Both the position numbers and the translations under genes were made by a program. Below the pieces are notes generated by a model. It saw only the letters and a list, made by a program, of their open reading frames with translations, did not search any database and had not been told where the DNA came from. Positions 9,998 through 59,893 of a stretch of DNA of 62,777 nt are shown in pieces. Position 1 is the stretch's first letter. Each line of letters begins with the position of its first letter. This DNA is from a virus. Its lineage: Duplodnaviria; Caudoviricetes. The stretch spans positions 1 through 62,777 of IMG/VR virus record IMGVR_UViG_3300022413_000011, one strand, 5' to 3'.

Positions 9998-10178
9998 CCA
10001 AGAAATAGCAGCAATTGACTTGCTTGCGCTGGTCTACGGAGAAAGCATCGGAGTGGACCTTCTTGAAGAGTGTTTTGTGTCACCCACTATGGAGGCTCAC
10101 AGAACCGATATCCTGGTGGACCTGATTGGAGCCATAAAGGATAGACGGGAAGAAATCAGAGCAAACTCTGATACATAG
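9990..10178 (+). CDS. Hypothetical protein
   Basis: ATG 9990 after AAGGAGG. Confidence 0.6.
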   Translation: MSDQEIAAIDLLALVYGESIGVDLLEECFVSPTMEAHRTDILVDLIGAIKDRREEIRANSDT

Positions 10179-10455
10179 ACAGCCAGACTATCACGAACAC
10201 AACAAGGAGCAACAGGGTCAAAGCACCAGCGATGGTCTTGTTGCTCACTCGTTTTCCCTTGCCAGCTTCTTCGCAGTCCCTCGCTGTATACCCCACTGGG
10301 TCCTTCTGAAACAAATCGGAATCCCCTCTTAGGTAGGCTCTTACCAGAGAGTTTACCCACACTGTAAAAACCACACTTTGAATCAAAAACCAAATAATCA
10401 CAATTGTATCGGCAGCATACCTAGCCATCATCAAATATTTAATACTATCGTCCAC
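10156..10455 (-). CDS. Two-TM membrane protein, possible holin
   Basis: Two hydrophobic helices; last gene of the structural block. Confidence 0.5.
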   Translation of the reverse strand: MDDSIKYLMMARYAADTIVIIWFLIQSVVFTVWVNSLVRAYLRGDSDLFQKDPVGYTARDCEEAGKGKRVSNKTIAGALTLLLLVVFVIVWLSMYQSLL

Positions 10456-11523: not shown

Positions 11524-12605
11524 GGCAAGCTCTCCATCTTGACCGACACGCTCATATCTCCATTCCTGTCTGACCTGGCTCTGAATGACTTGACGATACA
11601 CTCGTACGAGCTACCGTTTACGCTGACGTTGACCACGTCACCCAGGTCGTAATCCAAACCAAATCTATAGCCATCGACATCGACTGACTCGGCGCTCACC
11701 GACACCTTGGCCCTGTTCTTATTGATTTCGCTGAGTCCAGCGTCCGACAGGACCGTATGGCTAAACTCCTGACCCTTCGTAATGAATGCCTCATACCTGT
11801 CTATCCCCGTGGGATTTTGTATCCTCTGGTCCCTGGCCTCCACAACTATCTGTTCCGGTCCCTGCCCCTCTCCCCCCACATACACGTGAGTGACTTCATT
11901 TTCCCAAGACACCTCTAGCTCCACGTCAGAGATGTTTCCCCTGTCTGGCGAAAGGGATAAGTCTCGGACTACGCCTAGAACAGATGGTCTAATAATCACC
12001 CTGTATGGTTTTTGGATGTAACCCGTATAGACTACATCCACGTGGACAGGCATTCCCTTCTCCGTGGATTCGGAATTGATGTTACTTATGACGGAGAGAA
12101 GACTTTTCCATGCGCCCTTTGACTCGACAGATGGAGCTACCCCAGACACCTGCTCCACCTCGACCAGGTCATCAAGGGCTCTGACAGGGTTTAGTGGGGC
12201 TATGAGATTCTCATACAGGTAGTCGTAAATCATTCTATCTGCATTGGTGTTGTTGCCCATCTCCGTCGTTTTTTCTGCGTAGGTGGTCTCCCCTGGGTGA
12301 GCGACAATCCTCTGTTTATCCAGGATACTGAGCGCGCACTTTGCAGAAAGCTCGATGGTGTCCTCCTCCTCGGAAAATGTCACTTTCTTAAGGAGCCATA
12401 TGGTTTTGCCAAGCACGGTGGATGCAGGGATGTCGGTCCTTCTGACAACGAACTGCATGTCCTTTGACCAGTGGGACATGGGGATAGTGTTGGGAATGGT
12501 GATTTTCAGGGTCCCTACACGCCCCATCGCTTTCGCTACATCCACCTCATAGTATCTCAGAGACCCCAGGGAGACCCCCTTTTTGTACATATCCACAGAG
12601 AACAT
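11520..12605 (-). CDS. Siphovirus minor tail/hub protein (ReqiPepy6 Gp37-like)
   Basis: Position after Dit; VYVGGEGQG, RYEAF, FGLDYDLGDVV. Confidence 0.75.
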   Translation of the reverse strand: MFSVDMYKKGVSLGSLRYYEVDVAKAMGRVGTLKITIPNTIPMSHWSKDMQFVVRRTDIPASTVLGKTIWLLKKVTFSEEEDTIELSAKCALSILDKQRIVAHPGETTYAEKTTEMGNNTNADRMIYDYLYENLIAPLNPVRALDDLVEVEQVSGVAPSVESKGAWKSLLSVISNINSESTEKGMPVHVDVVYTGYIQKPYRVIIRPSVLGVVRDLSLSPDRGNISDVELEVSWENEVTHVYVGGEGQGPEQIVVEARDQRIQNPTGIDRYEAFITKGQEFSHTVLSDAGLSEINKNRAKVSVSAESVDVDGYRFGLDYDLGDVVNVSVNGSSYECIVKSFRARSDRNGDMSVSVKMESLP

Positions 12606-19381: not shown

Positions 19382-22300
19382 CTAAAACGAACTCATTATT
19401 GCAAAATCGCTAACTACACCCTGAGAACTGCGAGGTGTGTTTACGCTCAGATTGTAGTAGTTTGTGTTGTTGTAGTTGTTGGATGGCCCACTGGCATATG
19501 CTGGTGACTGTACGTTGCTCATCGACGCAGCGAGGGACGTGACCCCCACCATCACGGACTGCGCTGCATCCATGATGCTTTTTGCCCCATTCTGAATCCC
19601 CTTGGCAATGCCCTCAGAGAATGGTTCGCCCACCTCTTTGATGGCTACCTTGGATGGAGAGGCAGTCTTGGTTGCATCCTTTGCTGCTTTCCGCGCGGCC
19701 TCGCCAGCCTTTTGAGCAGCATGACGGATTTCATTTAACTTGTTCAGGATTCCGTCCGCGATACCCTGGCCAAATCTCTCACCAATCTCCACGCCCCAGT
19801 CAGCAAATTTCTCCTGCAAGAACCTGACCAACTCCTCAAACTTCTTTATCAGGTCTGCAACCATGCGATCTACGGTGCGCAGAACAGCCCTTCGCATATC
19901 CTCAAACATTTTCACGACTGCCTTGGTCATCTTGTCAACCAGGGCAATCAATTGGGTCTTGAGTAACTCAAACTGGGCTATAATCAGGAGTCTCATCGAC
20001 GTGACCAGTGATATGGTCGTGTCGTGCATATCCTGGAACCTGTCCACTACAAATATCTGAGTCTCCTCGACTAATGATGTGACCACCGTCTTCATGTCAG
20101 TGAAAAAGGTCAGCGTCTCGTCCAAGAACAAGGTCAGAATTGTGTTTACTTCCAACTTTGTCGCGTTGAACTGGGAAACCACCCCGATACGGAAAAAGAT
20201 AGCCTGGGCAACCAGCAGGGCAATGCCCAGGAGAGTTGACGACAGCAGTGTGTTAAACAGGGAGGGCATCGGGTCATCCTCTTTGGCTGACTTGATGCCA
20301 GCGAAGATGCCCTGTGTAATGGGTTGACCAATGTCGCGCTCTGCTTTTTTCGATGGAGACTTGGATTCCCACCACTCTCTGGCCGAGTCGTAGATGTATT
20401 TCATGGAGTTGTCCACGGACTCCTTGACACCTGCAATCTTGTCTAAGCCAGCCGTGATACCACTAATGACGCTCTCGCCCAGACCCTCTGCCTTTGTTTT
20501 TATACTGCCCAGGAGGTCAACGCTGATAACGGAGTCAAACATGTCGGTCAGGGACTTCTTGACTGTTGAAAAGCTTATCTCTACATACGCTTTAATCCCA
20601 TCCACCACGCTGTTGGCCATAGCCGTGCCAGACGATAGGAACCTAATGATGAAATCCGGTGACGATATGGCATCACGGATTTTTATGAACTTATCCTTTA
20701 TTGCCTGAACCTTTTCGTCTATTGCCTGTCCGATGCCGTCCAGGACACCATAAACAATTGGTTTGCCTATCTCCTCTGCTGCCAGGGTCGATGGCGAACT
20801 GATACCCCAGTACGCCTTGATTGCAACGGCAATCACGCGGAATATTGTGGCGATTTTCTCGTTGGTTATTTCATTCGCCGCGTCCAAGAGACCCTGGACT
20901 ACGCCGTCTATAATTGCTTGGCCTATTTCGTTGAATGACGGAATTACATCTGTGATAAATTTGCCCAGAAAAACCGTCCTGAATGTTGTCAGGTCTATTT
21001 CGCTACTGGTTGGTTTTAGTATGAACAAGAACAAGTTGAGTACAGCATCCTTGACAGCCTTCCAGTAATCAGCATCCGTGCTAAACACACCAGCCAACTG
21101 GGTGGGCAACGTCTCCGTTAGATAGTTAATCGCATTGGGCAGGGCCTCCCCGATGGCTACGGTGATATTCTCCTCAAGACTTGTGGCCATCCCTGAGAAC
21201 GCGCTGGATATGGAGCCCGAGATTCCCAGGGCCAACTTTTCTGGTTGAATCACGTGCGTGAGTGCGCCACCCAGACCCGTGTCAGCGTAGTTCCTTATGG
21301 ATGTGAGCATCCCATCGAAAAACACGGCAGCGTCAAAGCTCTCCCACGCCTTTTTTATTCTTTCCGTGATTGCAGGGATGTCTATGCCAAGTTCCTGGAG
21401 CCTGGTGTTAATCTTGGGAACATGCTCGTCCACCAAGTCTCTGAAGCCAAGGAAATTGCTCTGATACGCCTCGTAGAGAAGCCAGCCAGCCGTAATCACC
21501 CACCCAATAGGACCCGTGAGTAACCCAAGTGCCCTTCCCAGGAGAAGCGACACACCACGCAGGAGGCTAAACCTGGACACTAGTGGCAGCAGCAGTCTGC
21601 TAAGTGGGGCAAGGATAACCCCAAGAATTCTTATGGAGCCACTCAAAGCCTTAAATGGTGCCTTTATCAGGAGGAGGACGCGCACTAGACCTCGCAGCGC
21701 GCCAGAGAATATACCGGCTTGCGCAATGGACTTGATGAACAGGCCACCAGAAACAACTGCCTTTGTGCCCTTCCACACTGCTGTGAGCAGGAGTAGCATT
21801 TTTATGGTACTGAGCAGAGGGGATTCCCCCGTTGCAGGGTCACGCGGCTTGAGAAAATCTGGCAGGCTGTTGTTTATGTCCTCGAATGCCTTTTTCGCTG
21901 CATCGGCCATGTCGGTGAAGCTTTTCTTTATCTCTTTTATTTTGTTGTCAAATTCAGTGAGTGAACCAGCAAACCCAGCATCCTCCAGGGAGGGGAACTC
22001 ATGGGCGAACAGAGCCCCAAGGTCGTCCGATAGACCACCTACCCCATCGCTGGTATCCTTAATAACAATCTGCATGTCACGAAGTGGCTGGAGATCCACG
22101 CCAAATTTTGCAGCCTCAATGTCCCTGAGTTGCGCACGTATAGCTAACTCTTGCAACTCTAGCTGCGCAGCTACCTTCTCGGCCTCCGTTGCCGTTTCTG
22201 ACTCCAGAATCTTGCGCAACTCGGCCGCGCGCACAAGGTCCCTGAGTTCCTCGCGCTGTATCTGGATGGCTTTTAGCTGCCTTTCCAGTGGAGACAGGCC

Positions 22301-25300
22301 CTTCTTCATGGCCTTTGCCATGCTGCCAGCAGCGCCCTTGGCCTGGTCTAGCAGGGATTTCTGTTCTGCCAGCAGTTTGTTTTGCCCCTCCTGGAGACCC
22401 AGTCTCTCCTTGAAGTTGGCTATCTCGAATTCGGCTCTATCGACCGCACCCTTGGCCTGTTCAGACTCCGATTCCAGTTGGTCCTTCTTTACGTCTCGCT
22501 GTCTCTCCTGTAAACGTATTTGCTTGTTTAGCTGAATCTCTTCAATTCTAAGCTGAGTTGACCTCTGCTTATCGGACGAGATTCCAGGTGTAGAAAGAAT
22601 GCGAAACAGCTTGGCAAGTTCTTTCTCGTCTGCAATGTCCTGCTGCTGGTCCTTAATGCCTTGCAGACGGCCCTTCAGGGGGCTCAGGATGGTGTCAAAC
22701 AGCCTCATGGCACCATTGAGCCTACTCTGAGCTCTCTCGTAGTTCAGGGCGCTCCTGGCCACCTCTGAGTACCTTGAAATCAGACTGCCAATAGCAGGGC
22801 CAACCTTGGCACCCAGACTTCCTATGTCGGAAAATGTTTGGACGGAGACCTGGCCAAATCTGCGTATATCATCAATCGCCTGGGCAGTTATGTCGTTGGC
22901 CCTAAACTGAACCTCTGGGACGCTGGCCTTTTCTATCTGACCCGTACCAGCCAGGTTGTCCAGGATGGTACGAACGTTGGACCCAAAATCCTTCAAGGAC
23001 GCAAAGTCGGCTTTCTGCCAGCCCTGTAGATAAATGTTTGCTGCCTCTTCGCCCCACTTATCTATGTCTGGCACAATGCGCGGAGGTGATGCTGGTTGCA
23101 GGAAGTACGAAATCATGTTTCCGATGGCTGTCAGCGCACTGGCCACAGCTTCGACTGCTGCTGCCATACCAGAGGCAAATATCTCAACCGCGCGCTGACC
23201 CCAGGTGGCAAGCTGTGTCAAAAACGAGCTAAATGCAGTTGACAGGTTCGACAGAACCGACATGGTGCTTACCTGCACACTCAAAAACCCGGTAGTCCAC
23301 TCGGCAACCAAAAGGCCACCACCCGTAATCAGAAGACCAATCGGGGAAAGAACGGCTCCCAGGGCCGCGGACAGCAGACCCACGGCAACGACAACGGCAG
23401 CGATACCGACTGCTGTGACGGCAAACACGGCTGCAAACTTTACTACCTGTGGGTCAATACTCACGAGCGTATCGAACAGACCAGCGATTGCTGTCCTGAG
23501 ACGAGTGATTGCGCCAAAGAGGTACTCTCCAATCAGTTGACCAAGAGCGATTACGGATGCCCTCCAGTCACCATCTTCGTCCGTGAAGAAGTTCACCAAG
23601 CTCTCGAACCCCTCCTGGAGGGGACCCAGGAGAGCGATAAAGAAATCTCTCAGAGAGTTATTTTTGATGTCTCGCAGGGATGACAGCAAACCTGTAAGAG
23701 TCAGCGCGCTGGCCGCGGCTGCACCCTCGAACTCCTTGAAAAAGTCGCTTAGAACCTTGATGGCCAGACTGGAGGGCAAGAGCCCCTTTCTGGTCATCTT
23801 CTCCAGTTCTGTCCTGGTGACGCCGAGGTTATCAGCCAAAAGTTTTCTGATGGGGATACCGGCATTGGCAAGCTGACGAACCTCCTCACCAGCAAGCTTG
23901 CCCTTTGTCTGTATGTCGCCAATGGCTCTAGCCACATTCGCCAATTTCGCGGGGTCAGTACCAAACGCCGTACCGAAGTCCACAATTTGCTTGGTGAGTC
24001 CCCTCGACACGGCAGCAGGAATATCGCGCGTCACCAAATTGGTGAACACCTCCTGTATCTGCCCTGTCTCGAATGGAGACTTAATGGCCAGCCTATCAAA
24101 CTCCTGGGCCAAACCGCGCGCGAGGACCTTGGCCTTTTGCAGGTTCTCCACCTGGCTCGCCGTGGGGTCTGTTTGCGACAACTCCCTGAAGATAAATGCC
24201 GTGTTCGCAAACTGTAGCCTCTCAAACTGAGAAGCTACATCCAGGGATTGGGAGAACAGACGGCTAAACGCTCTGATTACTCCCTCCACAGAGTTTTTAA
24301 AGTTTACGACGCTGCGCACGGCAAACGCGGCCACGACAAACTTTCGAAATGTGCTGGTTGTTTGGGTGAGACGCTCCATCGACCGTTCGGCTCTACCAGT
24401 CTCCCTGGTGAAACCCTTGATAGGAGCAGCCAGGTTGGGCATTGACCCCTGGATACCCCCAACCACATTCTTGTAGTTGACCACGGCATCGAGCGATCTG
24501 TCCCAGCTTTTGTGTAGGACACCCACTGATTTGGCCAGATTAAAGATGGACGCGCTGGCCTTACCCGTATCAACCAATTTTCCAAGGGCAATTTTCCCAG
24601 CAGACCCACTCTTGCTTACGGCCACGCGGAATGCGTTGATGGCTCCCGCGGCATTCGTGTATGATGCCTGGACGCGCTTTCCTACGCTGTCCAGATTGGA
24701 TAGGGCTCCCTTGGCAGCGTTTATGGATTGACTGGACCTGCGAACGGCATCACTGACAGCAGCAGCAGCCTTCGCTACCTGCTGTTGGGACGCCCCCGGC
24801 GTTGTCAGGGCAGCACCATACTTCTGATACGCCAGAGTAACACGCGCCAGGTCAGTTGAGGCCAACTTCACGGCACTGGCCAAAGACCTGGCACCACCCA
24901 CTGCCTTTTGTGATTCTGCCTGATATGCACCCACGGCAGCAGATGCGTTTCTGGCTGCATCTGCTACCGCGTCTATACTGGCATCAGCAAGACCAAGAGA
25001 CTTGAGAGACGCAGACACACTTGCTGCCTTACCCTGTGCCTGGTCAAATTGCGTGACCAGGTCCTTCATGCTGGTGACACCTCTTCCAATGGAGGAGGCG
25101 TCTAGCCTTAGTTGGTCTGGCAGGTCTCCAAAGTCTTGGGCCAGTTGCCGAACCTGACTCGTGACTTTACTCAGGTCAGGGACTTGGGCATTGGGAATAT
25201 TTATGGACAGGCTCTTTTGAGCACCTACGGTCTGTTTTATTGCGTTGGCAACACCCCTGGTGTACTGACTCAGCCCCTTATTGAACTGAGATACATCAAA

Positions 25301-25327
25301 GACGCCTTTTAGACCTATTATTCTCAT
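19382..25327 (-). CDS. Tail tape measure protein
   Basis: 1981 aa, Ala-rich helical; AIKSPF...GKLAGEEVRQLANAGIP domain; repeated SPS motifs. Confidence 0.95.
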   Translation of the reverse strand: MRIIGLKGVFDVSQFNKGLSQYTRGVANAIKQTVGAQKSLSINIPNAQVPDLSKVTSQVRQLAQDFGDLPDQLRLDASSIGRGVTSMKDLVTQFDQAQGKAASVSASLKSLGLADASIDAVADAARNASAAVGAYQAESQKAVGGARSLASAVKLASTDLARVTLAYQKYGAALTTPGASQQQVAKAAAAVSDAVRRSSQSINAAKGALSNLDSVGKRVQASYTNAAGAINAFRVAVSKSGSAGKIALGKLVDTGKASASIFNLAKSVGVLHKSWDRSLDAVVNYKNVVGGIQGSMPNLAAPIKGFTRETGRAERSMERLTQTTSTFRKFVVAAFAVRSVVNFKNSVEGVIRAFSRLFSQSLDVASQFERLQFANTAFIFRELSQTDPTASQVENLQKAKVLARGLAQEFDRLAIKSPFETGQIQEVFTNLVTRDIPAAVSRGLTKQIVDFGTAFGTDPAKLANVARAIGDIQTKGKLAGEEVRQLANAGIPIRKLLADNLGVTRTELEKMTRKGLLPSSLAIKVLSDFFKEFEGAAAASALTLTGLLSSLRDIKNNSLRDFFIALLGPLQEGFESLVNFFTDEDGDWRASVIALGQLIGEYLFGAITRLRTAIAGLFDTLVSIDPQVVKFAAVFAVTAVGIAAVVVAVGLLSAALGAVLSPIGLLITGGGLLVAEWTTGFLSVQVSTMSVLSNLSTAFSSFLTQLATWGQRAVEIFASGMAAAVEAVASALTAIGNMISYFLQPASPPRIVPDIDKWGEEAANIYLQGWQKADFASLKDFGSNVRTILDNLAGTGQIEKASVPEVQFRANDITAQAIDDIRRFGQVSVQTFSDIGSLGAKVGPAIGSLISRYSEVARSALNYERAQSRLNGAMRLFDTILSPLKGRLQGIKDQQQDIADEKELAKLFRILSTPGISSDKQRSTQLRIEEIQLNKQIRLQERQRDVKKDQLESESEQAKGAVDRAEFEIANFKERLGLQEGQNKLLAEQKSLLDQAKGAAGSMAKAMKKGLSPLERQLKAIQIQREELRDLVRAAELRKILESETATEAEKVAAQLELQELAIRAQLRDIEAAKFGVDLQPLRDMQIVIKDTSDGVGGLSDDLGALFAHEFPSLEDAGFAGSLTEFDNKIKEIKKSFTDMADAAKKAFEDINNSLPDFLKPRDPATGESPLLSTIKMLLLLTAVWKGTKAVVSGGLFIKSIAQAGIFSGALRGLVRVLLLIKAPFKALSGSIRILGVILAPLSRLLLPLVSRFSLLRGVSLLLGRALGLLTGPIGWVITAGWLLYEAYQSNFLGFRDLVDEHVPKINTRLQELGIDIPAITERIKKAWESFDAAVFFDGMLTSIRNYADTGLGGALTHVIQPEKLALGISGSISSAFSGMATSLEENITVAIGEALPNAINYLTETLPTQLAGVFSTDADYWKAVKDAVLNLFLFILKPTSSEIDLTTFRTVFLGKFITDVIPSFNEIGQAIIDGVVQGLLDAANEITNEKIATIFRVIAVAIKAYWGISSPSTLAAEEIGKPIVYGVLDGIGQAIDEKVQAIKDKFIKIRDAISSPDFIIRFLSSGTAMANSVVDGIKAYVEISFSTVKKSLTDMFDSVISVDLLGSIKTKAEGLGESVISGITAGLDKIAGVKESVDNSMKYIYDSAREWWESKSPSKKAERDIGQPITQGIFAGIKSAKEDDPMPSLFNTLLSSTLLGIALLVAQAIFFRIGVVSQFNATKLEVNTILTLFLDETLTFFTDMKTVVTSLVEETQIFVVDRFQDMHDTTISLVTSMRLLIIAQFELLKTQLIALVDKMTKAVVKMFEDMRRAVLRTVDRMVADLIKKFEELVRFLQEKFADWGVEIGERFGQGIADGILNKLNEIRHAAQKAGEAARKAAKDATKTASPSKVAIKEVGEPFSEGIAKGIQNGAKSIMDAAQSVMVGVTSLAASMSNVQSPAYASGPSNNYNNTNYYNLSVNTPRSSQGVVSDFAIMSSF

Positions 25328-26260: not shown

Positions 26261-27730
26261 CTATGAAGCATCTCCACTGGCAATGAATCCTGTGGATGCC
26301 TGTGCGTTTCCACAGACGAAAAACTTTCTGTCGTCACAGATGAACAGGTCGGTGAGCCCGGTGTTGGTTGGGACCGTAATGGGCTCCCAGTAGAATCCAC
26401 CCGTTACCGTGCGCAGCACAACGCTGTTTCCACCACCCGTGGTGTGAATCATGTAGCCAAGAATCTCGTTTCTAAACGCCATTTGCGCGATAGACCCGGT
26501 TCCCGACCCAGAGAATGTTCGCTGGGTCCAGGTGACACCGGCATCGGCAGTGCTATAGATGTTGCCGTTCCCATAGCCAACCCATGCGCGGTTTCGATCC
26601 AAGCATGTCACGGCTGTGATGTCTTGACCTGCCTGTGGACCAGTGATGGCCTCCCAAGCAACTCCACCGTCGATGGAACGGGCCAGCGCGTTACTCGCGC
26701 CCCCCATCCATCCATCGGTTGCACTTGAGAAGTGAATGTCATTGATTACACCAGTCGTGACAACCCCTGCATCCTGAACCGTCCAGGTCACACCAGAATC
26801 ATCAGACTTGTAGATGTATCCGTCATCGGTGCCAACGAAAACATTTCTCAGGTCATACGCGCTCAGTGATGTGACATACTGGCCAGTCACAACGCCCACG
26901 TCAACAGCGGTCCATGTTGCACCACTGTCATCGCTGTAGGCCACTTCTGCTGCTGCGCCTGCATCGGTCTCTGCTCGAGACACCACAACACGGAACTGGT
27001 CAGCACCGAGGTCCAAGCCCACGATGTCGCCACAATCCTCGTCAATCCCAAATGGGTCTGCTGCTGCTGCTGTCCAGGTTCCTCCAGAATCGGTGGTTTT
27101 CAAGACATTAGCTGTCACGCCAGCCCCGGCTGCGCAGGACGCATAGCCGATCTGACACGATTTGCGCGCGGGGGTTGTGGCCGTCCGCGGACGAGCATCA
27201 CCCACGAACACGATGCTATCAACGTTGTTCACTTCCGAAATCGCCTGTCTGGAGATGGCTTGCGCAGTCACCTTGATGACTGCCTCTGCTTCCAGGTCGT
27301 ACGTGTTCAGAGAGGCATCTGTCTCATCAGGGTCACGCGCTGCGATGTTCGTACTACCGCGGCTGGTAATCTTGGTGTTGACAAATGCTTGCGAACGCAG
27401 GTAATTGCTAAAGTTGTCCCGTCGTCCCGTGCGCACTTTGTGTGCAAACATGGTGAAAGGGAACGCTGGGTCAATCTTCTCCATCTCGGAAAGTGTGTCT
27501 GACATCGTCTCTTCCAACGAGAAGGACGGTGCGTCACCGGCTCCACGGATGGAGCCAACCACCTTGAATGCCCCAGCTTTTGTTTCGTCAGGGCAGTAAA
27601 TCAGGGTAATATCACCCTCTGGTATATCAACATCCCCCAAGCTGGCACACCCGATGTACATGGGTGCCGTATTGGGACCGTCGCTTTGAACCCAAAGAGA
27701 TGAATCACCACTGGTAAGAGTTTCAGCCAT
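26261..27730 (-). CDS. Major tail (tube) protein fused to an Asp-box/BNR beta-propeller
   Basis: Position before the chaperone; SDDSGATW, SDDSGVTW, SIDGGVAW, TADAGVTW repeats. Confidence 0.7.
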   Translation of the reverse strand: MAETLTSGDSSLWVQSDGPNTAPMYIGCASLGDVDIPEGDITLIYCPDETKAGAFKVVGSIRGAGDAPSFSLEETMSDTLSEMEKIDPAFPFTMFAHKVRTGRRDNFSNYLRSQAFVNTKITSRGSTNIAARDPDETDASLNTYDLEAEAVIKVTAQAISRQAISEVNNVDSIVFVGDARPRTATTPARKSCQIGYASCAAGAGVTANVLKTTDSGGTWTAAAADPFGIDEDCGDIVGLDLGADQFRVVVSRAETDAGAAAEVAYSDDSGATWTAVDVGVVTGQYVTSLSAYDLRNVFVGTDDGYIYKSDDSGVTWTVQDAGVVTTGVINDIHFSSATDGWMGGASNALARSIDGGVAWEAITGPQAGQDITAVTCLDRNRAWVGYGNGNIYSTADAGVTWTQRTFSGSGTGSIAQMAFRNEILGYMIHTTGGGNSVVLRTVTGGFYWEPITVPTNTGLTDLFICDDRKFFVCGNAQASTGFIASGDAS

Positions 27731-28199
27731 TGCTGTTATCCTCCACTAATGAAATAATCGTATTTGCGTTTAATCTCAGCAAGGAAGAGATTACCCCTGC
27801 GACCTCGCTGGGACGAGTTCTCAGGTCATGCGTATCAAAATAGCCTGCTTTGCGCAGAGCTTTTGCTACCGTTTTCGGTGTGAGCGTAATGGTCGGTAGG
27901 ACTTCCTCCCACTCAACCCCGTGTGGGATGGCCTCTGAGACAACTGCCTTGCCATCCTGAACGCTCATTTTGGGGAGCCATCCCCGTTTCAGGTCCCCAT
28001 TCTCGGCCCATTGCACGAGTACGTTGTTATCGGCTCTGTCAACCTGCCTAACTTGTACTCTCCGCGACAAACTTGGCGAGGGCTTCTTCGAGCTCTGCTT
28101 CGAACTGTGGGCCGACTTCTTCCTCGACCGCGGACTCGAAGTCTCTGGCTGGGAATCCGGGGTGCCTGACTGGTCTAAAGACTCTTCTGTTTCTAGCAT
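27723..28199 (-). CDS. Hypothetical protein
   Basis: ATG 28199 with AGGAGG RBS (alternative TTG 28070). Confidence 0.6.
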   Translation of the reverse strand: MLETEESLDQSGTPDSQPETSSPRSRKKSAHSSKQSSKKPSPSLSRRVQVRQVDRADNNVLVQWAENGDLKRGWLPKMSVQDGKAVVSEAIPHGVEWEEVLPTITLTPKTVAKALRKAGYFDTHDLRTRPSEVAGVISSLLRLNANTIISLVEDNSNG

Positions 28200-28545
28200 G
28201 TCTGCCTCCTGAACGAGCAGATAAACTGCCCGGAGTTGTTTTTGCTGTGTAATCTGCAATCCTGAGATACCCGTAGTTGATTGGGGCAATATCGTGGGGA
28301 GGGGCCCCGTCGTTGACCAGCGTGTACACATCATCCTCCACGTATGCCTCAAAAAATATTTCCTGGCCGCGCGTGCTCTGCCGTCTACGAGCCTGGACTT
28401 TCCTGGTCCAGGTCTTCGTGGGTCTCTCAAGCCCTCTTTTGGCACGAACACTGTTCCTGCGTACCACGTCTGCCAGGTCCTTTTTGAATCCAGATGACCT
28501 GTCTTTTCTCTTGGGAACTATGCTCTGGAATCTGATTCTGCTCAT
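28048..28545 (-). CDS. Neck/tail completion protein (HK97 gp10-like)
   Basis: Basic protein; VNDGAPPHDI and VRHPGFPARDF motifs. Confidence 0.65.
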   Translation of the reverse strand: MSRIRFQSIVPKRKDRSSGFKKDLADVVRRNSVRAKRGLERPTKTWTRKVQARRRQSTRGQEIFFEAYVEDDVYTLVNDGAPPHDIAPINYGYLRIADYTAKTTPGSLSARSGGRHARNRRVFRPVRHPGFPARDFESAVEEEVGPQFEAELEEALAKFVAESTS

Positions 28546-28646
28546 TTGCCAACGACTCTGATTGAAATTGCAATATGTGTGCCTGTATAGGTTTTTAACA
28601 TCAGGTGGAGAACTGGGCGTTTGGGAACCAGTCGCCAAAAACCGTA

Positions 28647-28847: not shown

Positions 28848-29276
28848 CTATGTGATTCTCCCACCCTTGTACACCTTGACTTCCTCATACTCCCTGGTGT
28901 CCCAACGGTACACCCTCTTCGTTGTGGGTAGTCCACCGTAGACCACTTTCCCACTGTCAATGTCCCATCTTTCTATGGTGGAGGGAACACCTGGCACACC
29001 CTTGCTGGCGTTTCTCTTTGCCATTTTCAAACCCAGCTTCTCTGCCCACGCCTTCCAGCTACACATTGTTTTTAAGATGTACGACGCGCTGGGAATGGGA
29101 TGGGACCTGTGGGCATCAAAGTGGGACGTAGATGGCATATGCCCATCACTAGACAGCCTGAGTATCTCGCGGGCTACCATCGCTTCTCGTTCGTCAACAC
29201 CTATCTTTGACCACCCAGTTTTACTTGGCATACAGACCCTTTCTACATTACGGTTTCTTAATTGGGGTCTGCGCAA
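28848..29276 (-). CDS. Putative DNA-binding protein with homing-endonuclease-associated repeat-like segment
   Basis: GHMPSTSHFD...PSASYILKTMCSWKAWAEKLGL. Confidence 0.5.
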   Translation of the reverse strand: MRRPQLRNRNVERVCMPSKTGWSKIGVDEREAMVAREILRLSSDGHMPSTSHFDAHRSHPIPSASYILKTMCSWKAWAEKLGLKMAKRNASKGVPGVPSTIERWDIDSGKVVYGGLPTTKRVYRWDTREYEEVKVYKGGRIT

Positions 29277-29434: not shown

Positions 29435-29845
29435 CTACACTCCCACCCTAAATGTTCGCCACATAGTGTATATCAAGATATGCACCATAAGACCAGAGAT
29501 CATCATCCTCGTGGCTGTGATGAGAGAGATAAGCTCATTGCCGAACGTGAACCCATCACTGGAAGACACGGAAGATATGTTTGCCATGTGCAAGAGGGTC
29601 ATTATCGCCCCTATATACAGTCCCATCTCGGAGAACAGGATGGACATTGGGTCGTGGCGAATCTTTGCGAACCTGTAGAGAAGAAGGGCGCACAGACACA
29701 CTCCACCCGCGGCAGATATTGGATAAATAAAGATTCTGAATTTCCAAAGTGCTTCCGGGCTGGCACTGAGTACCCCGATAAAGGCCAGCATCATCACGGA
29801 CACACGTATGGCCGATATTTTCAAATGTGCCATGTTATATCCCAC
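29435..29845 (-). CDS. Four-TM membrane protein
   Basis: Four hydrophobic helices. Confidence 0.7.
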   Translation of the reverse strand: MGYNMAHLKISAIRVSVMMLAFIGVLSASPEALWKFRIFIYPISAAGGVCLCALLLYRFAKIRHDPMSILFSEMGLYIGAIMTLLHMANISSVSSSDGFTFGNELISLITATRMMISGLMVHILIYTMWRTFRVGV

Positions 29846-30368
29846 CCGTGACTTGCAGACCGACTATGAGAAGACCCAAGAAAAGACTTAGAAAAATCAG
29901 GTAAAATATGTGCTCAGTATATCGTGTCCCCCTGTTTCCATCGGGGTATTTTCTAATCTTCAACTCTGCTTCCACGCGACCCATTCTGCTATCCACCTGC
30001 TCCAGGGTAACCTGGAGATATGCAAGCTTCTTGTATATTTCTAGTAACTCTTTGCCATTCAAGTTATCACCCTCACTGGAGTCTATAGTTATCCTGTTCC
30101 TGTAACCCCCACTCTCTTTCCAGTGATTGGATAAAACTAGGTTCTTTAGGTGTTGATTTCCTGGGTTCTCTGAAAACGAGCCTAGAACCAGGGCAGATAA
30201 CTTGTTTCTCCTCTGTGCCCAAGAGACTAGGTTGCCTACCACCTCAGTAAAGCTTTCTCCCCCTACTATATCGCCTAGGTCTTCGTCAAGATGTGTACGC
30301 ACAACACGCACCATTTCTGCCTTATTAAAGGCATCTAGTAAAGCCTCAACTATCTGTTCCCGGTCCAT
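29835..30368 (-). CDS. Effector-associated domain 1 (EAD1), coiled coil and C-terminal TM helix
   Basis: EALLDAF...LDEDLGDIVGG...VVGNLVSWAQRRNKLSALVLGSFSENPGNQHL matches the EAD1 pattern. Confidence 0.8.
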   Translation of the reverse strand: MDREQIVEALLDAFNKAEMVRVVRTHLDEDLGDIVGGESFTEVVGNLVSWAQRRNKLSALVLGSFSENPGNQHLKNLVLSNHWKESGGYRNRITIDSSEGDNLNGKELLEIYKKLAYLQVTLEQVDSRMGRVEAELKIRKYPDGNRGTRYTEHIFYLIFLSLFLGLLIVGLQVTGGI

Positions 30369-30374
30369 CTCGTT

Positions 30375-32846
30375 TTACACATTGTACGTTATCGTCCAAC
30401 TGTATGGAGGCAACTTCAGCGTTTCCAGGTTTGCCTGTTGCGCAGCAGATGGAGATGCGTTGCTCCCTTCCAGGCTAAGAGTAATGGCGTTATTGTAGTT
30501 ATCTCTAGCTGCCCATATATCATCGCAGACCTGGTCTACTTCGGTTGTTGTCCAACTACAACCGTGAAATCGCATTTGTGTCGCGTCCACCCACAGCCCA
30601 GCAGCACCACCAGTACCGTACGATACATTTGTGTTAGTCGATGTGTTGATTACATATATAGCTGTCAGGCTTGTCCACTCTGAAATATCAGCACTCACGC
30701 TTGTCGCATTTATATATACAATACTCAACCCAGTCAACGTGCCTATATCTTGTCCATCTCCTGACACGCCAGAACCACCAAAGTGCATATACGTTAGACT
30801 GGTCAGCGCACTCAGTACGGATATGTCGCCAGTCATAGAAGCATTGGTGTGTAGGCGTATCTCCTCCAGGCTAGTTAGTGCCGTCAAGTCCGGTAAGGCT
30901 GTAAGGCCCTGGTCAGGAGCATTGAAATCTGTCACGCTGGCAGCAGTCGGAAACTCCACCACCACGGTTTGACTAGACCCATCAAGCACCTTGCTCGGGC
31001 TGTTGTTGGTCTGAATCTCGCCATCCTCAAAATACGCGTTGGCCGTTCCACTGCTTAGTACAAATGTGGGGTCAAATGTACCATTTTTATCGGTTTCCAT
31101 TGACACCTGGTTTGCGATGCTGCCAATATCGTATGATGTTGCGCTGGTAAACCTTTGTGCAGCCGTCACCAAGTACGCATCCTCTGTCGGACTATACGTA
31201 TACACACGTATCTCCCCGACACTACGCATCATTTGATAGATTCGTAGATAGCCCTCACCACCTTCTGCTCTGTCTTGGTAGTTGGCTAGGTACTGATGGA
31301 CTACATTCCCACCGTCACGCGTGTCGTCCAGGGACCCAACCCCGGGAGACAGCACGTGACCACCATGCACCATTTTCACGTTTTCACGGGTCAGTAAAAT
31401 CTTGTTGTATATCTGACGACCATTGTTAATCGTCGTGGACTCGGAGCCTGTATCAAACTCGTTTTCTGGCAGGTACAGGTGGCCTGAATCACCATGCCGT
31501 GTGTCATCGGTATACATATAAGCATGTGTAGCGATGACAGTCAGGTGGTTTGGATAGGTGTCAATTATGCCCGCGGCCCATGACAGGACAGCATCGCGCG
31601 GCCCATACTCCAGGGTCATGAACAGATAGTCTTTGCCACCTAGACGCGCTGTGTAGTATGCGTTTTCGCTGCGTCCACCCTCGTAGAACCCACCGTTCCA
31701 CCAGGTTTCAGACGTATACCTCGACTGTGGGAATCGCGTATTAAATTCCGTCACATCGCTGCGTACTGGTGGACTACCACTCATGTTGTCGTAGTCATGG
31801 TTCCCTACAGAAATCAAGTGGGGAATGTTATTTGTCGCCAGTGTCGCCATGCCAGCCACACCATTATCCCACTGGCCAGACACATCATCGTCAACCACAT
31901 CCCCAACGTGCAGCACAGCACCGATTTTGTATTTGCTCTGATTTGAGACTATCCAATCTGTCTGGTCAGTAAATGTGACGGGATAATCCTGACTGTAGAA
32001 TTGTGTATCAGGCAGAATGACCAGAGACCAGTCAAGTCCACTCGAAAGTTGCATTGGGCGATTTAGTCCAATGTCCCACTTTTTGGACAGATAGTCCTCT
32101 GCTTGCTCCATCTCGCTGTCAGTGAGCCCAGCGCGGTACGCAAGGATTTCGCCATGCTGACCGTTAAACAACCAGTCCAGACCGACGAAATCGAAATCAC
32201 CCACGTTTGACAACGCATCAGCATCTTTTAGCGCGCCAGTATGCGCAACGGCTGCGCCCAGTTGAATGCCGTTCTGCCTGATGATCTGGTCTGTCCCGTT
32301 GTACCTGAAGGAGAATATGTTCCACCCAGTCAAAGGCTCATTCGGTGTCTCTGTGTGGTCCACCCTGGTGGTCGTTATTGTCGTAAACTGCACGTTACCA
32401 GTCGAACGAATAGCGCAGAAAAACGTGCCATTGGTACTGCTATCGTGCTGACTGAGAAGCATCTGGTCAATACTGTCCGTGTCAGCCTTGCACACGACGA
32501 AAACAGTCAAACCGGCTGCATAGAAATCAATCTCAGGGCCTACAAACTCGTCATTGCCACCCCAGTCAATGGTGTTCAGGCTATTTTTGGTAACCAGTGT
32601 GGACTGAGGCTGATTGGCCGTCACACCCTGTGTGAACGCGTGTGCATTGCTGCTCTTGTCGGTCCACTGACTGACATGTGTAGCATCAGCAAGAGCAATG
32701 GTAGACGTGTCGGACGCGTCCAACCACAGGGAGAGATTGTCAATGGTTGTTGGCAGGAACAACGATGAAATCGCCTCCCCCGTGACACCCACGCCAATCC
32801 CAGGGTCCAACAGGGCATAGTCTGTTACTCTATGACTGCCCAGCAT
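30375..32846 (-). CDS. LamG-like, calcineurin-like metallophosphoesterase and leucine-rich-repeat protein
   Basis: LWLDASD LamG-like start; PDTQ, GDVVD, GNHD, THAY, GHV motifs; LTALTSLEEIRL-type LRRs. Confidence 0.8.
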   Translation of the reverse strand: MLGSHRVTDYALLDPGIGVGVTGEAISSLFLPTTIDNLSLWLDASDTSTIALADATHVSQWTDKSSNAHAFTQGVTANQPQSTLVTKNSLNTIDWGGNDEFVGPEIDFYAAGLTVFVVCKADTDSIDQMLLSQHDSSTNGTFFCAIRSTGNVQFTTITTTRVDHTETPNEPLTGWNIFSFRYNGTDQIIRQNGIQLGAAVAHTGALKDADALSNVGDFDFVGLDWLFNGQHGEILAYRAGLTDSEMEQAEDYLSKKWDIGLNRPMQLSSGLDWSLVILPDTQFYSQDYPVTFTDQTDWIVSNQSKYKIGAVLHVGDVVDDDVSGQWDNGVAGMATLATNNIPHLISVGNHDYDNMSGSPPVRSDVTEFNTRFPQSRYTSETWWNGGFYEGGRSENAYYTARLGGKDYLFMTLEYGPRDAVLSWAAGIIDTYPNHLTVIATHAYMYTDDTRHGDSGHLYLPENEFDTGSESTTINNGRQIYNKILLTRENVKMVHGGHVLSPGVGSLDDTRDGGNVVHQYLANYQDRAEGGEGYLRIYQMMRSVGEIRVYTYSPTEDAYLVTAAQRFTSATSYDIGSIANQVSMETDKNGTFDPTFVLSSGTANAYFEDGEIQTNNSPSKVLDGSSQTVVVEFPTAASVTDFNAPDQGLTALPDLTALTSLEEIRLHTNASMTGDISVLSALTSLTYMHFGGSGVSGDGQDIGTLTGLSIVYINATSVSADISEWTSLTAIYVINTSTNTNVSYGTGGAAGLWVDATQMRFHGCSWTTTEVDQVCDDIWAARDNYNNAITLSLEGSNASPSAAQQANLETLKLPPYSWTITYNV

Positions 32847-39990: not shown

Positions 39991-40334
39991 TATTTTCCTG
40001 CGTCGGAAAGCATTCCAAACATGACGTAGGCAAACCCAGAGGCAGCAAACACAGCCACCGCGATGTTTACCCAGGGGACATACAGAAGGGCGAAACTAAT
40101 TCCCGATGTCCACACCATGTTGCACAGAATGCAGTGGTATGCCTTTGCAATCTCACGCCTCAACCCAGTAAGTTCCGGGTCCACCACTATTTCAGAATAC
40201 TCGTCATATCTCAGGCCAACAATGTACCTGAGAGTCTCGAACACATCGTACGGGCCATCTGTCAGCGTCAGTATCATCGACAGGCTAAACCCCGATGCTC
40301 CAGCAACGGCAGCATTAACCAGCAAGGAGACCAT
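39990..40334 (-). CDS. DUF1360-like membrane protein
   Basis: DGPYDVFETLR and CILCNMVW motifs with TM helices. Confidence 0.7.
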   Translation of the reverse strand: MVSLLVNAAVAGASGFSLSMILTLTDGPYDVFETLRYIVGLRYDEYSEIVVDPELTGLRREIAKAYHCILCNMVWTSGISFALLYVPWVNIAVAVFAASGFAYVMFGMLSDAGK

Positions 40335-40848
40335 TGGCCATTTCCTTAACCTTCCCGGCCATGACTTTACCGAATCCCTTAATCTTTACCAGGTCATCCA
40401 CGCTGGCAAGAGCAACCTGTCTGACCTCCGTGTATCCATTATCGCGGAGGACATTTACATGGCGCTCCTGAAGATTTAGGTCATCCAGGGTGGGGTCCTC
40501 CACGCGCGGTTGCACCTCTGGAGTCTCCAGAGAGGACCGTATGTCCTCTAGGGACTCTACGGGCTTTTCGGGAGCCTTCTTTTCTACTGGAGGAGCGCCC
40601 TGGTCTTCCATGACAATAAACATATGGCTTTTAGCGTGCTGTTCTTGTACGAAGAACACCTCGCCATTCTTTCTGTGCCCGTAAGACACCGGGCCAGTGG
40701 GACTGGACAGGATAACTGAGTGTCTGCCAGCGTTCCCGTCGTTCAATTTTACTTTTACAAGATTTTCCATAATAAGTGACCTCCTGGAGACAGGGGTGCC
40801 TGCTCTAGGTGCAGGCACCCCCGATCCACCACAGCTTCTACAACCCAT
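40315..40848 (-). CDS. Helix-hairpin-helix protein with N-terminal GCxxCGG
   Basis: LRDNGY...ASVDDLVKIKGFGKVMA. Confidence 0.75.
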   Translation of the reverse strand: MGCRSCGGSGVPAPRAGTPVSRRSLIMENLVKVKLNDGNAGRHSVILSSPTGPVSYGHRKNGEVFFVQEQHAKSHMFIVMEDQGAPPVEKKAPEKPVESLEDIRSSLETPEVQPRVEDPTLDDLNLQERHVNVLRDNGYTEVRQVALASVDDLVKIKGFGKVMAGKVKEMANGLLAG

Positions 40849-44026: not shown

Positions 44027-45685
44027 TTATACATTTCCCTGTGGCTGTGCCGAGGCTTCAGCCTGATCATTCGTTCCCTCCAGGGGGTTTTCCTCCTGAA
44101 GAGACTCCTCCAATGCAGCCACCTCTACAAGCGACTCGGACTCCACCCTGAGTTTCTCAAGCGCAGCAATAGAGAGTCGTATGCGCCATCGTCTCTTCTC
44201 GCCCTGTATCGCATTCAAAGCCGTGTACGCTCTCTCCAGAGCATCTGTTGTCTCTTCAAGAACGACATCGGCGTTTTCGGATGTCATCCTTACCGGACGT
44301 GTGACTTCTTTGAGCAACAGTTCAATCATGGGGTCACTGGAGTAAAACAACGAATAGACATCGTCCCCGTCCGGGGTTCGCCCATCGGAAAGCTCGAGTG
44401 TTTCAAATTCGAATTTTGTAATCTCACCCTTACGCATCATCATCATGCGCTGGGTTCGTGTGTCAGTTAGACCACTGGCCACATCCCTGCTGCGCGCGGT
44501 GGCGCGCATAGCATGGATTCGTGCCGTGGCCTCATCCTGCGAATCGTCCAGTGAGTCAAAGGTGGCAGACAACCCTTCAGGGCAGTATTTCTCAGTGAGT
44601 TGCTCTGCCAGGTCGTCTGTAAACTCTTTCAATCCTTTTGTTTTCAGCTTGCGATCCATCGTCTCCGCGTCGCCCTTGGTGGCTCCCTGTAAGCCAAAGG
44701 CGATGTTCAGGTCTCGCAAGTCAAGGCCAAACGCTGAAGCAACCACGGACATATCTATCAGATATGTTTCCGTGCGATTGAACCCGTCCGGTGTTCCTGC
44801 CAGGTCTATTTTGTTCAGCTTCAGACTGGACGCGGCCATCTTGGGTGCCAGCAAGAGGGTCTTTGAGAAATAATCGTTACCAGATGCAGAAAGCTTCACA
44901 TGGTGGGCACCCACAGCCGACTCGATTTGGTCCACTGTCGCCCCGGTTTCCACGTAGAGTATCTGGCGCGCTGGCTTACTCCCTAGCTTCTCCTCTAGGT
45001 AGCTAGAAATCGCCTTCTGCTCTCTGGCAGACTCCAGACACGAAGAGACCGGACAAAAGCCCACACCGTTAAGTTCAGGGTCGGGGTTTGGCAGCTTCGT
45101 CATATGGACAAGGCGCGTATGGTGTATGGGGTACTGCTGCATATCGGTGTGGGTGTATACAATGGGGTATTCAGGGGAACTAGTCCTCATGCAGAGGGCA
45201 CTTTGCATGTGTGCTAGGCCATATGGTCTCCCAACAATAGGCCCGTCCTTGTTCCCCTGGCCCAGGACAAGCATAAATGCACCGTTATCCTGGGTTAAAT
45301 AGTCCTGCACAAATTTCTGTAGCTCATTCCTCAGTCCACCCATCATGCCAGAGTTTCTCATGAGGGAGACTCGCATCTCCTCGGCCATCTTGACCATTCT
45401 GGAGACACTTCTGTCATCTGCTTCAATGGTGAGAGGGACAGACAACAGCTTGCTCGTAAATGTGACGATGGATATTTTGAGTACATCGGCGTCAAACGCC
45501 AGTTTTCTTAGCGCGGAGTCACGGTGCGCACTCCAGTACGGGGGAATACCAGATACGCTGCCCGGGAGCAGAAAGGCGACGCGATGACTCATCCCACTGC
45601 TGTCGGCATCCGTCTCCGTTTCCCAGGGCGCGCCTGACATAACCTCTTGTAATTTATCAGGCATAATCCATTCCCATTCCGTCAC
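44027..45685 (-). CDS. Portal protein
   Basis: Between terminase and protease; DYLTQDNGAF, GFCPV, VASAFGL. Confidence 0.8.
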   Translation of the reverse strand: MTEWEWIMPDKLQEVMSGAPWETETDADSSGMSHRVAFLLPGSVSGIPPYWSAHRDSALRKLAFDADVLKISIVTFTSKLLSVPLTIEADDRSVSRMVKMAEEMRVSLMRNSGMMGGLRNELQKFVQDYLTQDNGAFMLVLGQGNKDGPIVGRPYGLAHMQSALCMRTSSPEYPIVYTHTDMQQYPIHHTRLVHMTKLPNPDPELNGVGFCPVSSCLESAREQKAISSYLEEKLGSKPARQILYVETGATVDQIESAVGAHHVKLSASGNDYFSKTLLLAPKMAASSLKLNKIDLAGTPDGFNRTETYLIDMSVVASAFGLDLRDLNIAFGLQGATKGDAETMDRKLKTKGLKEFTDDLAEQLTEKYCPEGLSATFDSLDDSQDEATARIHAMRATARSRDVASGLTDTRTQRMMMMRKGEITKFEFETLELSDGRTPDGDDVYSLFYSSDPMIELLLKEVTRPVRMTSENADVVLEETTDALERAYTALNAIQGEKRRWRIRLSIAALEKLRVESESLVEVAALEESLQEENPLEGTNDQAEASAQPQGNV

Positions 45686-46985
45686 AATCGTTCAAAAATG
45701 TGACAGAGTATCTTAGAGTATCACACGAGTGATCGTGTATCTTTTTTGGTTTCTCTTGCACACCGTCTTTATTCTCTGCCCACACGTATCCGGGGATTTC
45801 CTCTATGATTCCACTGGGCAACCCCTTTTCCTCGCAGACCTCATCTGGTTCTTCGAGACATCCAGAATAAATCGTCAGAGAGGGTCTCCCGTCGTCATCG
45901 AGTTCGAGTTTCTCAGACACCCTTTCGATGCCATATAACACGTCGTTGTTTGCTGGCACAGCAGGTAGTCCTGCTTCAACAAATTGCTGTAGAAACTCTG
46001 GCCTGGCAGGGTCACAGACAAAGATGTCTGGGTGATATATGGCCGACAACTCCCTAGCCTTTTCAATCCACCACTCTATGGTTCTCTGAGTCTTGGACAC
46101 CTCGTGCAAGACGCGCACATCGCGTTTTACATCCATAGAGGAGACCATCATCGTCCCCCTGCTGGTGTATCCCCAGTCAACACCCACTGCCGTGATTGTT
46201 GTGACTTCTGGGTTGGGCAGGATATGGGTGTTGTCCCAGAGTGTGGCTGGCGTTTTTGTGCCACGAACCGTAGCGTCCAGCATTTTTTGTCTGGACACCG
46301 AGTGAATACTGTCATTCCAGTCCCAGATGACGCCTTCGGACTGAGCCCATTTCCCCTCTAGCAGACGAAGTCTCGTAACCCCTGTTAGCTTTCTTAGAGA
46401 CTCTATATAGTCGTCTGGGTTATATGGGTTGTCCAGGGGACCTGCCTCGTACACAGAGGCTTCTCCCCCTAGTATCAGCCTCCTGCGAATCCAGTGCATT
46501 GGGCCATCTGGATTTGTAGACAGAATAATCTGCCTCCAGGGTGCTGCTTGCCCTCTCATGCGCCCCAGAATCTCGTTGTAATCGCTCTCGAGGAATCTGG
46601 TTGCCTCTTCCATCCAGGCTATATCAATAGACCCTGCTTGCCCGATGGAGCGAATCGCTTCTTTCTGCTCCTCATCGGCCATGCCTCCATAAGCCAGGAT
46701 GCTACCGTTTGCATACTCAAATCTAAGCTTGGACGAGAAATGACGTATGAATGGGTCGCCCTGCACCACCGTTCTCTCGAACATCAGAACGGTGGAGTTT
46801 GTCATACTTTGTCGCTTTTTGCGCAGCATGACCCCCATTGCGTCGGGATACTTCCTGAGATACGCATCCATCTTTTGGGCTGCGCACATACTGCGCCCTG
46901 CTCCAGCAGGACCAGACAAGAGAACAGTAGATGACTTGTCCCGAAGTGGGGGAATTTGCCACGCCAATGGCGTAAAAGAATTCAC
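45657..46985 (-). CDS. terL: Terminase large subunit (PBSX-like)
   Basis: SGPAGAGRS, AWMEEA, LSTNP, RLLEGKW, GVDWG, DHSCDTLRY. Confidence 0.93.
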   Translation of the reverse strand: MNSFTPLAWQIPPLRDKSSTVLLSGPAGAGRSMCAAQKMDAYLRKYPDAMGVMLRKKRQSMTNSTVLMFERTVVQGDPFIRHFSSKLRFEYANGSILAYGGMADEEQKEAIRSIGQAGSIDIAWMEEATRFLESDYNEILGRMRGQAAPWRQIILSTNPDGPMHWIRRRLILGGEASVYEAGPLDNPYNPDDYIESLRKLTGVTRLRLLEGKWAQSEGVIWDWNDSIHSVSRQKMLDATVRGTKTPATLWDNTHILPNPEVTTITAVGVDWGYTSRGTMMVSSMDVKRDVRVLHEVSKTQRTIEWWIEKARELSAIYHPDIFVCDPARPEFLQQFVEAGLPAVPANNDVLYGIERVSEKLELDDDGRPSLTIYSGCLEEPDEVCEEKGLPSGIIEEIPGYVWAENKDGVQEKPKKIHDHSCDTLRYSVTFLNDCDGMGMDYA

Positions 46986-59886: not shown

Positions 59887-59893
59887 TCGTTCT

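Follow-up and report, generated by a model that had tools for sequence, protein, structure and literature searches.

A membrane-anchored EAD1 protein encoded in the late operon of a tailed phage: a candidate decoy of host immune adaptors

The EAD1 gene and its product

The sequence analyzed here (the window) is IMG/VR record IMGVR_UViG_3300022413_000011, which is 62,777 bp long, is classed as linear, and has a CheckV completeness of 81%. Its open reading frame (ORF) at 29835..30368 on the minus strand (P0001) encodes a protein of 177 amino acids that, according to the ORF list, Pfam, and AlphaFold2 (AF2), consists of an N-terminal effector-associated domain 1 (EAD1), a linker, a heptad helix, and a C-terminal transmembrane (TM) helix. 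The record belongs to a tailed phage, as it carries terminase, portal, tape measure, minor tail, and tail fiber genes, and the gene is therefore phage-encoded, as a preliminary description made from the letters and their ORFs had stated. EADs are defined by their distribution, in which a core component bears a single copy and effectors bear others (Kaur et al. 2020, PMC7159879). From comparative genomics, and likening EADs to domains of the Death superfamily, the same authors predicted that these copies couple homotypically; a literature search found no experimental test of the adaptor role. The full-text literature search also returned no report of a phage-encoded EAD1, in agreement with the earlier remark that no characterized phage example was known.

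The Pfam EAD1 profile (PF19955) matched residues 2–78 of the protein, corresponding to profile positions 7–86 of 90, with a score of 44.6 bits (E 2e-11), compared with a gathering cut-off of 24.2 bits. The preliminary description had recognized an EAD1 pattern at residues ~1–78 and had named the lack of any EAD1 profile or structural match as what would speak against it; the profile matched above the cut-off, and all of the quoted motifs were located (EALLDAF at 8–14, SWAQ at 49–52, and ENPGNQHL at 67–74). The near-invariant residues of a 50-sequence alignment (A9, L19, L27, L31, L47, W50, L60, N71, and L74) are all kept in the phage protein. A six-frame search of the record scored 46.9 bits (E 1.9e-13), while the same search gave a match in one of 14 control genomes and a match above the cut-off in none. 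The profile score, together with the small, all-helical, non-enzymatic nature of the N-terminal domain, identifies it as a member of EAD1, with a score below those of cellular copies (44.6 vs 58–91 bits). A sub-threshold match to EAD7 was also seen and is expected, EAD7 being a related family. Neither Pfam nor PHROGs assigned a further domain or an enzymatic family to the protein, and PADLOC-DB 2.0 returned no family for it or for seven further ORFs of the window (eight proteins), which upholds the proposed absence of an enzymatic effector and makes the protein adaptor-only. There is a single EAD1 match in the 62.7-kb record; a homotypic partner, if there is one, must thus be encoded by the host or be the protein itself.

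The whole protein was modeled by AF2 with the 50-sequence alignment, giving a mean predicted local distance difference test score (pLDDT) of 83. The EAD1 domain covers residues 1–85 (30114..30368, minus strand), as delimited by the Pfam match and by an AF2 model of the domain only. Residues 1–80 reach a pLDDT of 93–98 in the whole-protein model, and the domain-only model (pLDDT 91.3, predicted template modeling score 0.81) contains six helices within residues 3–80. The domain is followed by a low-confidence linker at residues 86–104 (30057..30113, minus strand), with pLDDT values below 50 at residues 90–101, and then by a long amphipathic heptad helix of 36 residues (105–140; 29949..30056, minus strand), which is predicted by AF2 and aligns with the metagenomic relative P0052 through residue 137. 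The a and d positions over residues 106–138 are 100% L, I, V, or M, and together with the AF2 helix this agrees with the coiled coil suggested at the outset. Judging from the heptad pattern, the protein probably oligomerizes through this helix. The C-terminal TM helix at residues 151–174 (29847..29918, minus strand) is supported by both the AF2 helix and hydropathy, with Kyte-Doolittle values peaking at 2.45 within residues 150–177, so that the prediction of one C-terminal TM helix also stands. It is preceded by K/R-rich residues and followed by just three residues. This K/R-rich flank and the three-residue tail point to an N-in tail anchor, in which the EAD1 domain would face the cytoplasm.

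The domain model was compared with the PDB by a Foldseek fold search. The best row was a bacterial death-like domain (8srz_A; TM-scores 0.63/0.64, rmsd 3.3 Å over 92 columns, probability 0.90), followed by a CARD (9frr; TM-score 0.59), and Death, CARD, PYD, vFLIP, and ICEBERG rows stood lower. The top rows had E-values of 0.97–1.7, and no row was found at E ≤ 1e-3; the death-fold likeness of the phage EAD1 is suggestive rather than established. A profile search of PDB sequences returned only noise and matched no solved structure. The structural neighbors in a protein atlas were EAD1 clusters of Cyanobacteriota, Actinomycetota, and Chloroflexota.

Genomic context and possible roles in lysis or at the membrane

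The EAD1 gene lies in the middle of a single long minus-strand late operon, which runs from ~47.9 kb down to 10.2 kb, and has the same orientation as its neighbors. In three DNA runs of sediment metagenomes, Logan contigs spanned both junctions of the gene with 0 differences, and the fragments from the three runs were identical to one another. Since both junctions are bridged by independent contigs, the placement of the gene is not an assembly chimera. No RNA sequencing run was listed as holding the EAD1 sequence. Promoter and terminator consensus sites in the 25–34 kb region were no more common than in shuffled sequences, and none of them sets the EAD1 gene apart. An identical 177-aa EAD1 protein is also present on a contig of 80,458 bp, which fits a genome of ~80 kb.

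The upstream gene (30375..32846, minus strand) encodes an 823-aa protein and ends 6 nt ahead of the ATG of the EAD1 gene. This protein combines an N-terminal virion-structural part of LamG-like type (phrog_10356, 8.7e-18), a calcineurin-like phosphoesterase (Metallophos, 1.7e-6), and a weak leucine-rich repeat tail. The phosphoesterase part has 206 homologs at E ≤ 1e-5, mostly multidomain proteins of ~35–44% identity, whose source names, where present, suggest Planctomycetota, Verrucomicrobia, and Myxococcota; one of them, P0156, bears two peptidoglycan-binding domains. The 823-aa protein may be a virion-borne envelope phosphodiesterase. The downstream gene (29435..29833, minus strand) encodes a 132-aa protein with ~4 TM segments by hydropathy. 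A single nucleotide separates its ATG from the stop codon of the EAD1 gene, and an alternative GTG start at 29845 would give an 11-nt overlap with the EAD1 gene. The 4-TM protein has no Pfam, PADLOC, or protein-atlas assignment, no holin family match, and no detectable relatives.

The 1-nt gap between these two genes and the coherent membrane topologies of their products raise the idea of a phage-autonomous membrane module, in which the EAD1 protein and the 4-TM protein would act together as a holin regulator, an anti-holin, a superinfection-exclusion factor, or an assembly factor. The EAD1 domain would then serve merely for self-association or cytoplasmic docking, with no link to host EAD1. 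XhlA-type coiled-coil–TM proteins accompany holins, and the heptad helix plus tail anchor resembles their design, as does the adjoining gene for a multi-TM protein; the homology of the helix–TM module across a small family (P0052 aligned through residue 137) also agrees with such a role. On the other hand, a search of the window for XhlA (PF10779) found nothing even at a threshold of E ≤ 10, no endolysin gene is adjacent, and an EAD1 domain is added to the XhlA-like layout. The module offers no reason for keeping an adaptor domain of immune networks with its conserved core residues, and the 4-TM protein has no detectable relatives by which a conserved pair could be recognized. An autonomous module of this kind is considered unlikely.

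The same surroundings bear on a role in lysis, in which the late, membrane-tethered, oligomeric EAD1 would recruit and activate host EAD1-fused effectors, e.g., peptidoglycan hydrolases and proteases, so that the suicide machinery of the host releases the virions; the adjacent 4-TM protein may cooperate. The late-operon location of the gene and its translational coupling to the 4-TM protein gene favor this role. None of 54 window ORFs contains a peptidoglycan-hydrolase domain according to Pfam, and five endolysin families were absent in six-frame searches. The EAD1-linked effectors described by Kaur et al. include a lysozyme and a peptidoglycan peptidase. A precedent is provided by LypABC, a CARD-NLR-like system that the Caulobacter gene transfer agent (GTA) requires for lysis (Banks et al. 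2026, PMC13236601). In both cases a phage-derived element would be tied to a death-fold immune module for lysis, whereas LypABC is host-encoded and has peptidase and ATPase domains and the phage protein is an adaptor only (PMC13236601). Several points disfavor hijacking of this kind. About 19% of the genome is outside the record and may hold a normal endolysin gene, and the late operon ends, directly after the tail fiber gene, with a separate holin-like ORF of 99 aa (10156..10455, minus strand) that encodes two TM segments as well as a charged loop. Besides, the 4-TM protein has no holin family match, and the host effector itself is presumed. Hijacking for lysis is accordingly regarded as improbable; if the protein proves to be a lysis accessory, it would be a second case, after GTA/LypABC, of immunity modules serving virion release.

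Relatives of the protein and the rarity of EAD1 in phages

At E ≤ 1e-3, a phmmer search against 1.84 billion representative proteins yielded 716 proteins; the number fell to 18 at E ≤ 1e-10, and at E ≤ 1e-30 the phage protein itself was the sole match. Nearly all of the 716 matches run through residues 1–85. TM segments were predicted in 38 of the best 150 relatives. Cellular relatives include EAD1-TM-FGE-sulfatase (P0100/P0133) and EAD1-TM-fasciclin (P0072) proteins, showing that cells also encode EAD1 proteins bound to the membrane. In these proteins with an ectodomain, as in the phage protein, an N-terminal cytoplasmic EAD1 is followed by a single TM helix; the phage protein differs in having no ectodomain and in having the heptad helix before the TM helix. 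Between the phage EAD1 and that of VMAP-type core components (P0042 and the cellular locus L002), identity reaches 41–45%, and for the L002 copy it is 45% over residues 8–81. L002 was the one cellular locus returned by a scan of JGI metagenomes with alignment A5. It is the nearest locus whose genes were read and has the textbook makeup of a cellular system, with genes for an (EAD1)-trypsin, an EAD1-VMAP-C, a MoxR-type AAA, and a large FGE-sulfatase protein. The same scan with the phage protein, as well as a scan of genome contigs with alignment A5, returned nothing. Separately, P0002, P0003, P0004, and P0005, which are metagenomic or from Chloroflexota metagenome-assembled genomes (MAGs), have 4–7 tandem EAD1 domains, some with TM segments; no mention of such a tandem poly-EAD1 architecture was found in the literature passages covered.

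The full design of EAD1, linker, amphipathic helix, and C-terminal TM helix recurs in three or four metagenomic proteins of 165–186 aa. P0052, P0017, and P0046 share the whole architecture at 28–31% identity, and P0052 aligns with residues 4–137 of the phage protein at 31% identity (E 2e-19). P0017 and P0046 have the shortened N-terminus and the ENPGNQ motif in common with the phage protein, whereas P0025 and P0114 are looser look-alikes. In an IQ-TREE phylogeny of 126 single-domain rows, the phage protein formed a clade with P0017 and P0046 (SH-aLRT 83), and a FastTree phylogeny of 194 rows likewise placed these two nearest to it. The phage EAD1 thus groups with two tail-anchored proteins and not with the EAD1-TM-ectodomain proteins, and the shared architecture and clade argue for selection on the whole design. 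P0017 and P0046, the closest tail-anchored relatives, have replaced the near-invariant Trp that corresponds to W50 of the phage protein. P0017, P0046, P0052, P0025, and P0114 are all singletons on contigs of 870–4409 bp.

The guanine–cytosine (GC) content of the gene is 0.449, compared with a mean of 0.511, and among 57 ORFs just one has a lower value (z −2.36), which is consistent with horizontal capture. The gene could be a selectively neutral piece of a cellular EAD1 gene that was captured recently and has no function in the phage. Besides the low GC, the Pfam score below those of cellular copies and the status of the protein as a singleton in large collections would agree with this. The ORF is nevertheless intact, tightly packed, and co-oriented with its neighbors, the core EAD1 residues are kept, and the structural model is confident. 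Moreover, full-length relatives of ~30% identity keep their lengths and modules, implying long-term purifying selection on the architecture, and a functionless fragment is hence judged very unlikely.

Among known phages the domain appears to be rare. No PHROGs family matches EAD1, neither the phage protein nor a typical EAD1 had a tblastn hit in INPHARED, and BFVD yielded no fold match at E ≤ 1e-3. IMG/VR pattern scans with the phage protein, alignments A2, A4, and A5, P0052, and P0025 also found no relative; these scans need exact short patterns and are insensitive, so that they support calling EAD1 rare in phages and do not support calling it unique.

Possible host

The available data give a weak hint that the host is among Chloroflexota. 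The top relatives that bear a name are proteins of Chloroflexota MAGs with 4–7 EAD1 repeats, and in a motif scan of species genomes 20 of 23 loci were from Chloroflexota, a count biased by the derivation of the motif from similar sequences. Within the class of G001 (titled Chloroflexia), the large terminase (TerL) had matches in three of 301 genomes, with a best E-value of 1.3e-57, and it also matched one of 301 cyanobacterial genomes (E 3.7e-11). The best cellular genome for TerL, G675, shares only a TerL of 35% identity over 439 aa and a tape measure fragment with the phage, and its GC content is 63% vs 51%. Chloroflexota genomes can hold many EAD1 matches, with 24 in G001, 16 in G003, and 58 in G005, values that are matches per genome and not gene counts, as some proteins have several repeats. 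G005 is the 14.9-Mb genome behind locus L024, and its 58 matches, counted in this way, exceed the highest number of EAD1 proteins in one genome, 22, that is quoted by Kaur et al. (2020, PMC7159879). At E ≤ 1e-6, an EAD1 query matched one of 401 sampled genomes of the phylum of G001, namely the genome at the center of the sample. A full-length tail-anchored homolog was found neither in G001 nor in five further genomes searched.

Proposed function as an adaptor-only decoy

The same domain family, PF19955, occurs in the cellular EAD1 copies of MoxR-vWA ternary (VMAP/iSTAND), GAP1 GTPase, NACHT-FGS, and TRADD-N conflict systems (Kaur et al. 2020, PMC7159879; 2021, PMC8195603). Like those copies, the phage domain is N-terminal, small, all-alpha, and non-enzymatic. 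Unlike them, it is phage-encoded, tail-anchored, of lower profile score, unfused to a core, effector, or signaling domain, and single in its record; the contextual hallmark of EAD1, i.e., copies on core and on effector or signaling proteins, is therefore not seen within the phage. The preliminary description had inferred either a decoy of host EAD1 effectors or their deliberate triggering. Tentatively, we propose that the phage protein acts as an adaptor-only decoy of host EAD1 networks, a reading that we consider quite possible while short of probable.

The decoy would work as follows. Made late, alongside the virion proteins, the protein would be anchored in the cytoplasmic membrane by its C-terminal helix, would expose its EAD1 domain to the cytoplasm, and would probably oligomerize via the heptad helix. 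The phage EAD1 may then pair homotypically with host EAD1 domains on core components (VMAP, iSTAND, NACHT, and GAP1) and likewise with those of host effectors such as trypsin, caspase, and others. With these partners held at the membrane, the sensor–effector complex could not assemble, and the outcome would be dominant-negative inhibition, as with the death-fold-only inhibitors of eukaryotic viruses. Death-fold-only inhibitors are known, among them vFLIP, viral CARD- or pyrin-only proteins, and ICEBERG. By analogy, the phage protein would be a virus-encoded adaptor domain with no effector, as in vFLIP and viral CARD-only proteins, from which it differs in that it has no sequence homology to them, is membrane-anchored, and belongs to a prokaryotic host setting, and in that its binding and inhibition are proposals.

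Several observations speak for the decoy. They include the EAD1 match above the Pfam cut-off, the lack of any further domain, the single copy in the record, the retained near-invariant residues, the 45% identity to the EAD1 of the VMAP core component in L002, the homotypic coupling proposed for EADs (Kaur et al. 2020, PMC7159879), the recurrence of the architecture in P0052, P0017, and P0046, the apparent rarity of EAD1 in phages, and the low GC content of the gene. In addition, the top PDB rows, i.e., death-like and CARD, represent the fold class that is used for homotypic assembly, with E-values that are not significant, and the candidate host lineages of Chloroflexota have very large EAD1 repertoires.

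Other observations weigh against it. By the Foldseek E-value (0.97), the fold match of the model to death-like domains is not significant. Both the binding to host EAD1 and the presence of EAD1 systems in the host are presumed, and a search of G675 with the EAD1 protein P0052 was negative at E ≤ 1e-6. With its weaker EAD1 score, the phage domain may have drifted in binding specificity, and the lack of a W50 equivalent in P0017 and P0046 may mean that the subfamily is drifting from canonical EAD1 pairing. The phage protein and each of its relatives are singletons in a collection of 15 billion proteins. Furthermore, the gene belongs to a late structural operon and has no promoter-like site of its own, whereas counter-defense genes are more often early, and its translation is coupled to that of a 4-TM protein for which a decoy would have no use. 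A role in lysis or at the membrane would accord with the late-operon place and this tight coupling roughly as well as a decoy would.

In its broadest form, the idea is that this is the first case of immune-adaptor mimicry by a phage, a virus of a multicellular-type bacterium, in which a captured, death-fold-like, effector-stripped, membrane-tethered, oligomeric EAD1 would disarm or fire the EAD1-wired cell death of the host. This broad claim is put forward with reserve, as possible though less likely than not. If true, such mimicry would give vFLIP and viral CARD-only proteins a counterpart in prokaryotes, and the phage protein would be a natural reagent for proving that EADs act by homotypic pairing. 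If the decoy is real, adaptor mimicry would join the counter-defense strategies of phages, and the parallel between bacterial and animal cell death would extend to viruses. As a phage protein with EAD1 alone as its adaptor, it offers a simple, testable handle on EAD wiring in the conflict systems of filamentous and multicellular bacteria, and the homotypic-adaptor model would be validated if the protein bound host EAD1 and altered the outcome of infection.

Other features of the phage genome

The structural genes of the late operon include TerL (45657..46985; phrog_2, 9.4e-28), the portal (44027..45685), the tape measure protein (19382..25327; TMP_3, 1e-16), and minor tail and tail fiber genes (10456..12605). 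A replication block on the plus strand encodes a replication initiator, a sliding clamp, DnaB, and a Toprim primase truncated by the left end of the record. The TerL of the phage is at most 29% identical to that of deposited phages, an IMG/VR scan with a neighboring 612-aa protein found no relative, and the only homolog of the sliding clamp is itself.

The plus strand also encodes an actin-like ALP_N/ParM-type protein (58124..59089) and an FtsK/SpoIIIE-like protein (48497..50041), which hint at plasmid-like segregation or unusual DNA handling, and helix-turn-helix regulators are encoded in the record. Since these features hint at a plasmid-prophage lifestyle, the EAD1 protein might instead benefit a lysogen, with a temperate or plasmid-like prophage adding a membrane sensor or adaptor to the host EAD1 network and thereby aborting superinfecting phages; the cellular EAD1-TM-FGE-sulfatase and EAD1-TM-fasciclin proteins show that membrane-bound EAD1 proteins with ectodomains exist. 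Yet no integrase was seen in the record, the gene is placed within the late structural operon with no promoter or terminator of its own, unlike typical morons, the three residues past the TM helix provide no ectodomain for sensing, and PADLOC gave no match. A benefit to lysogens is regarded as highly improbable.

Several further features were noted elsewhere in the record. Directly upstream of the tape measure region, a 489-aa protein (26261..27730, minus strand) has BNR/Ycf48/sortilin-type beta-propeller repeats in its C-terminal half; it is possibly a tail protein that bears a carbohydrate-binding decoration. The ORFs at 27723..28451 and 28048..28638 (both minus strand) overlap by ~400 nt in different frames, and neither has a family match; one of them may be spurious, or the pair may represent a programmed-frameshift product. 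The ORF at 28848..29276 had been considered as a carrier of homing-endonuclease-associated repeats, an idea that found no Pfam support. Within the head-gene block, another 177-aa ORF (40315..40848, minus strand) matches the RNA polymerase alpha C-terminal domain/helix-hairpin-helix (2.8e-6). Finally, ARAGORN predicted a tRNA-Pro with the anticodon AGG at 59893..59978 on the plus strand, which is unusually long at 86 nt.

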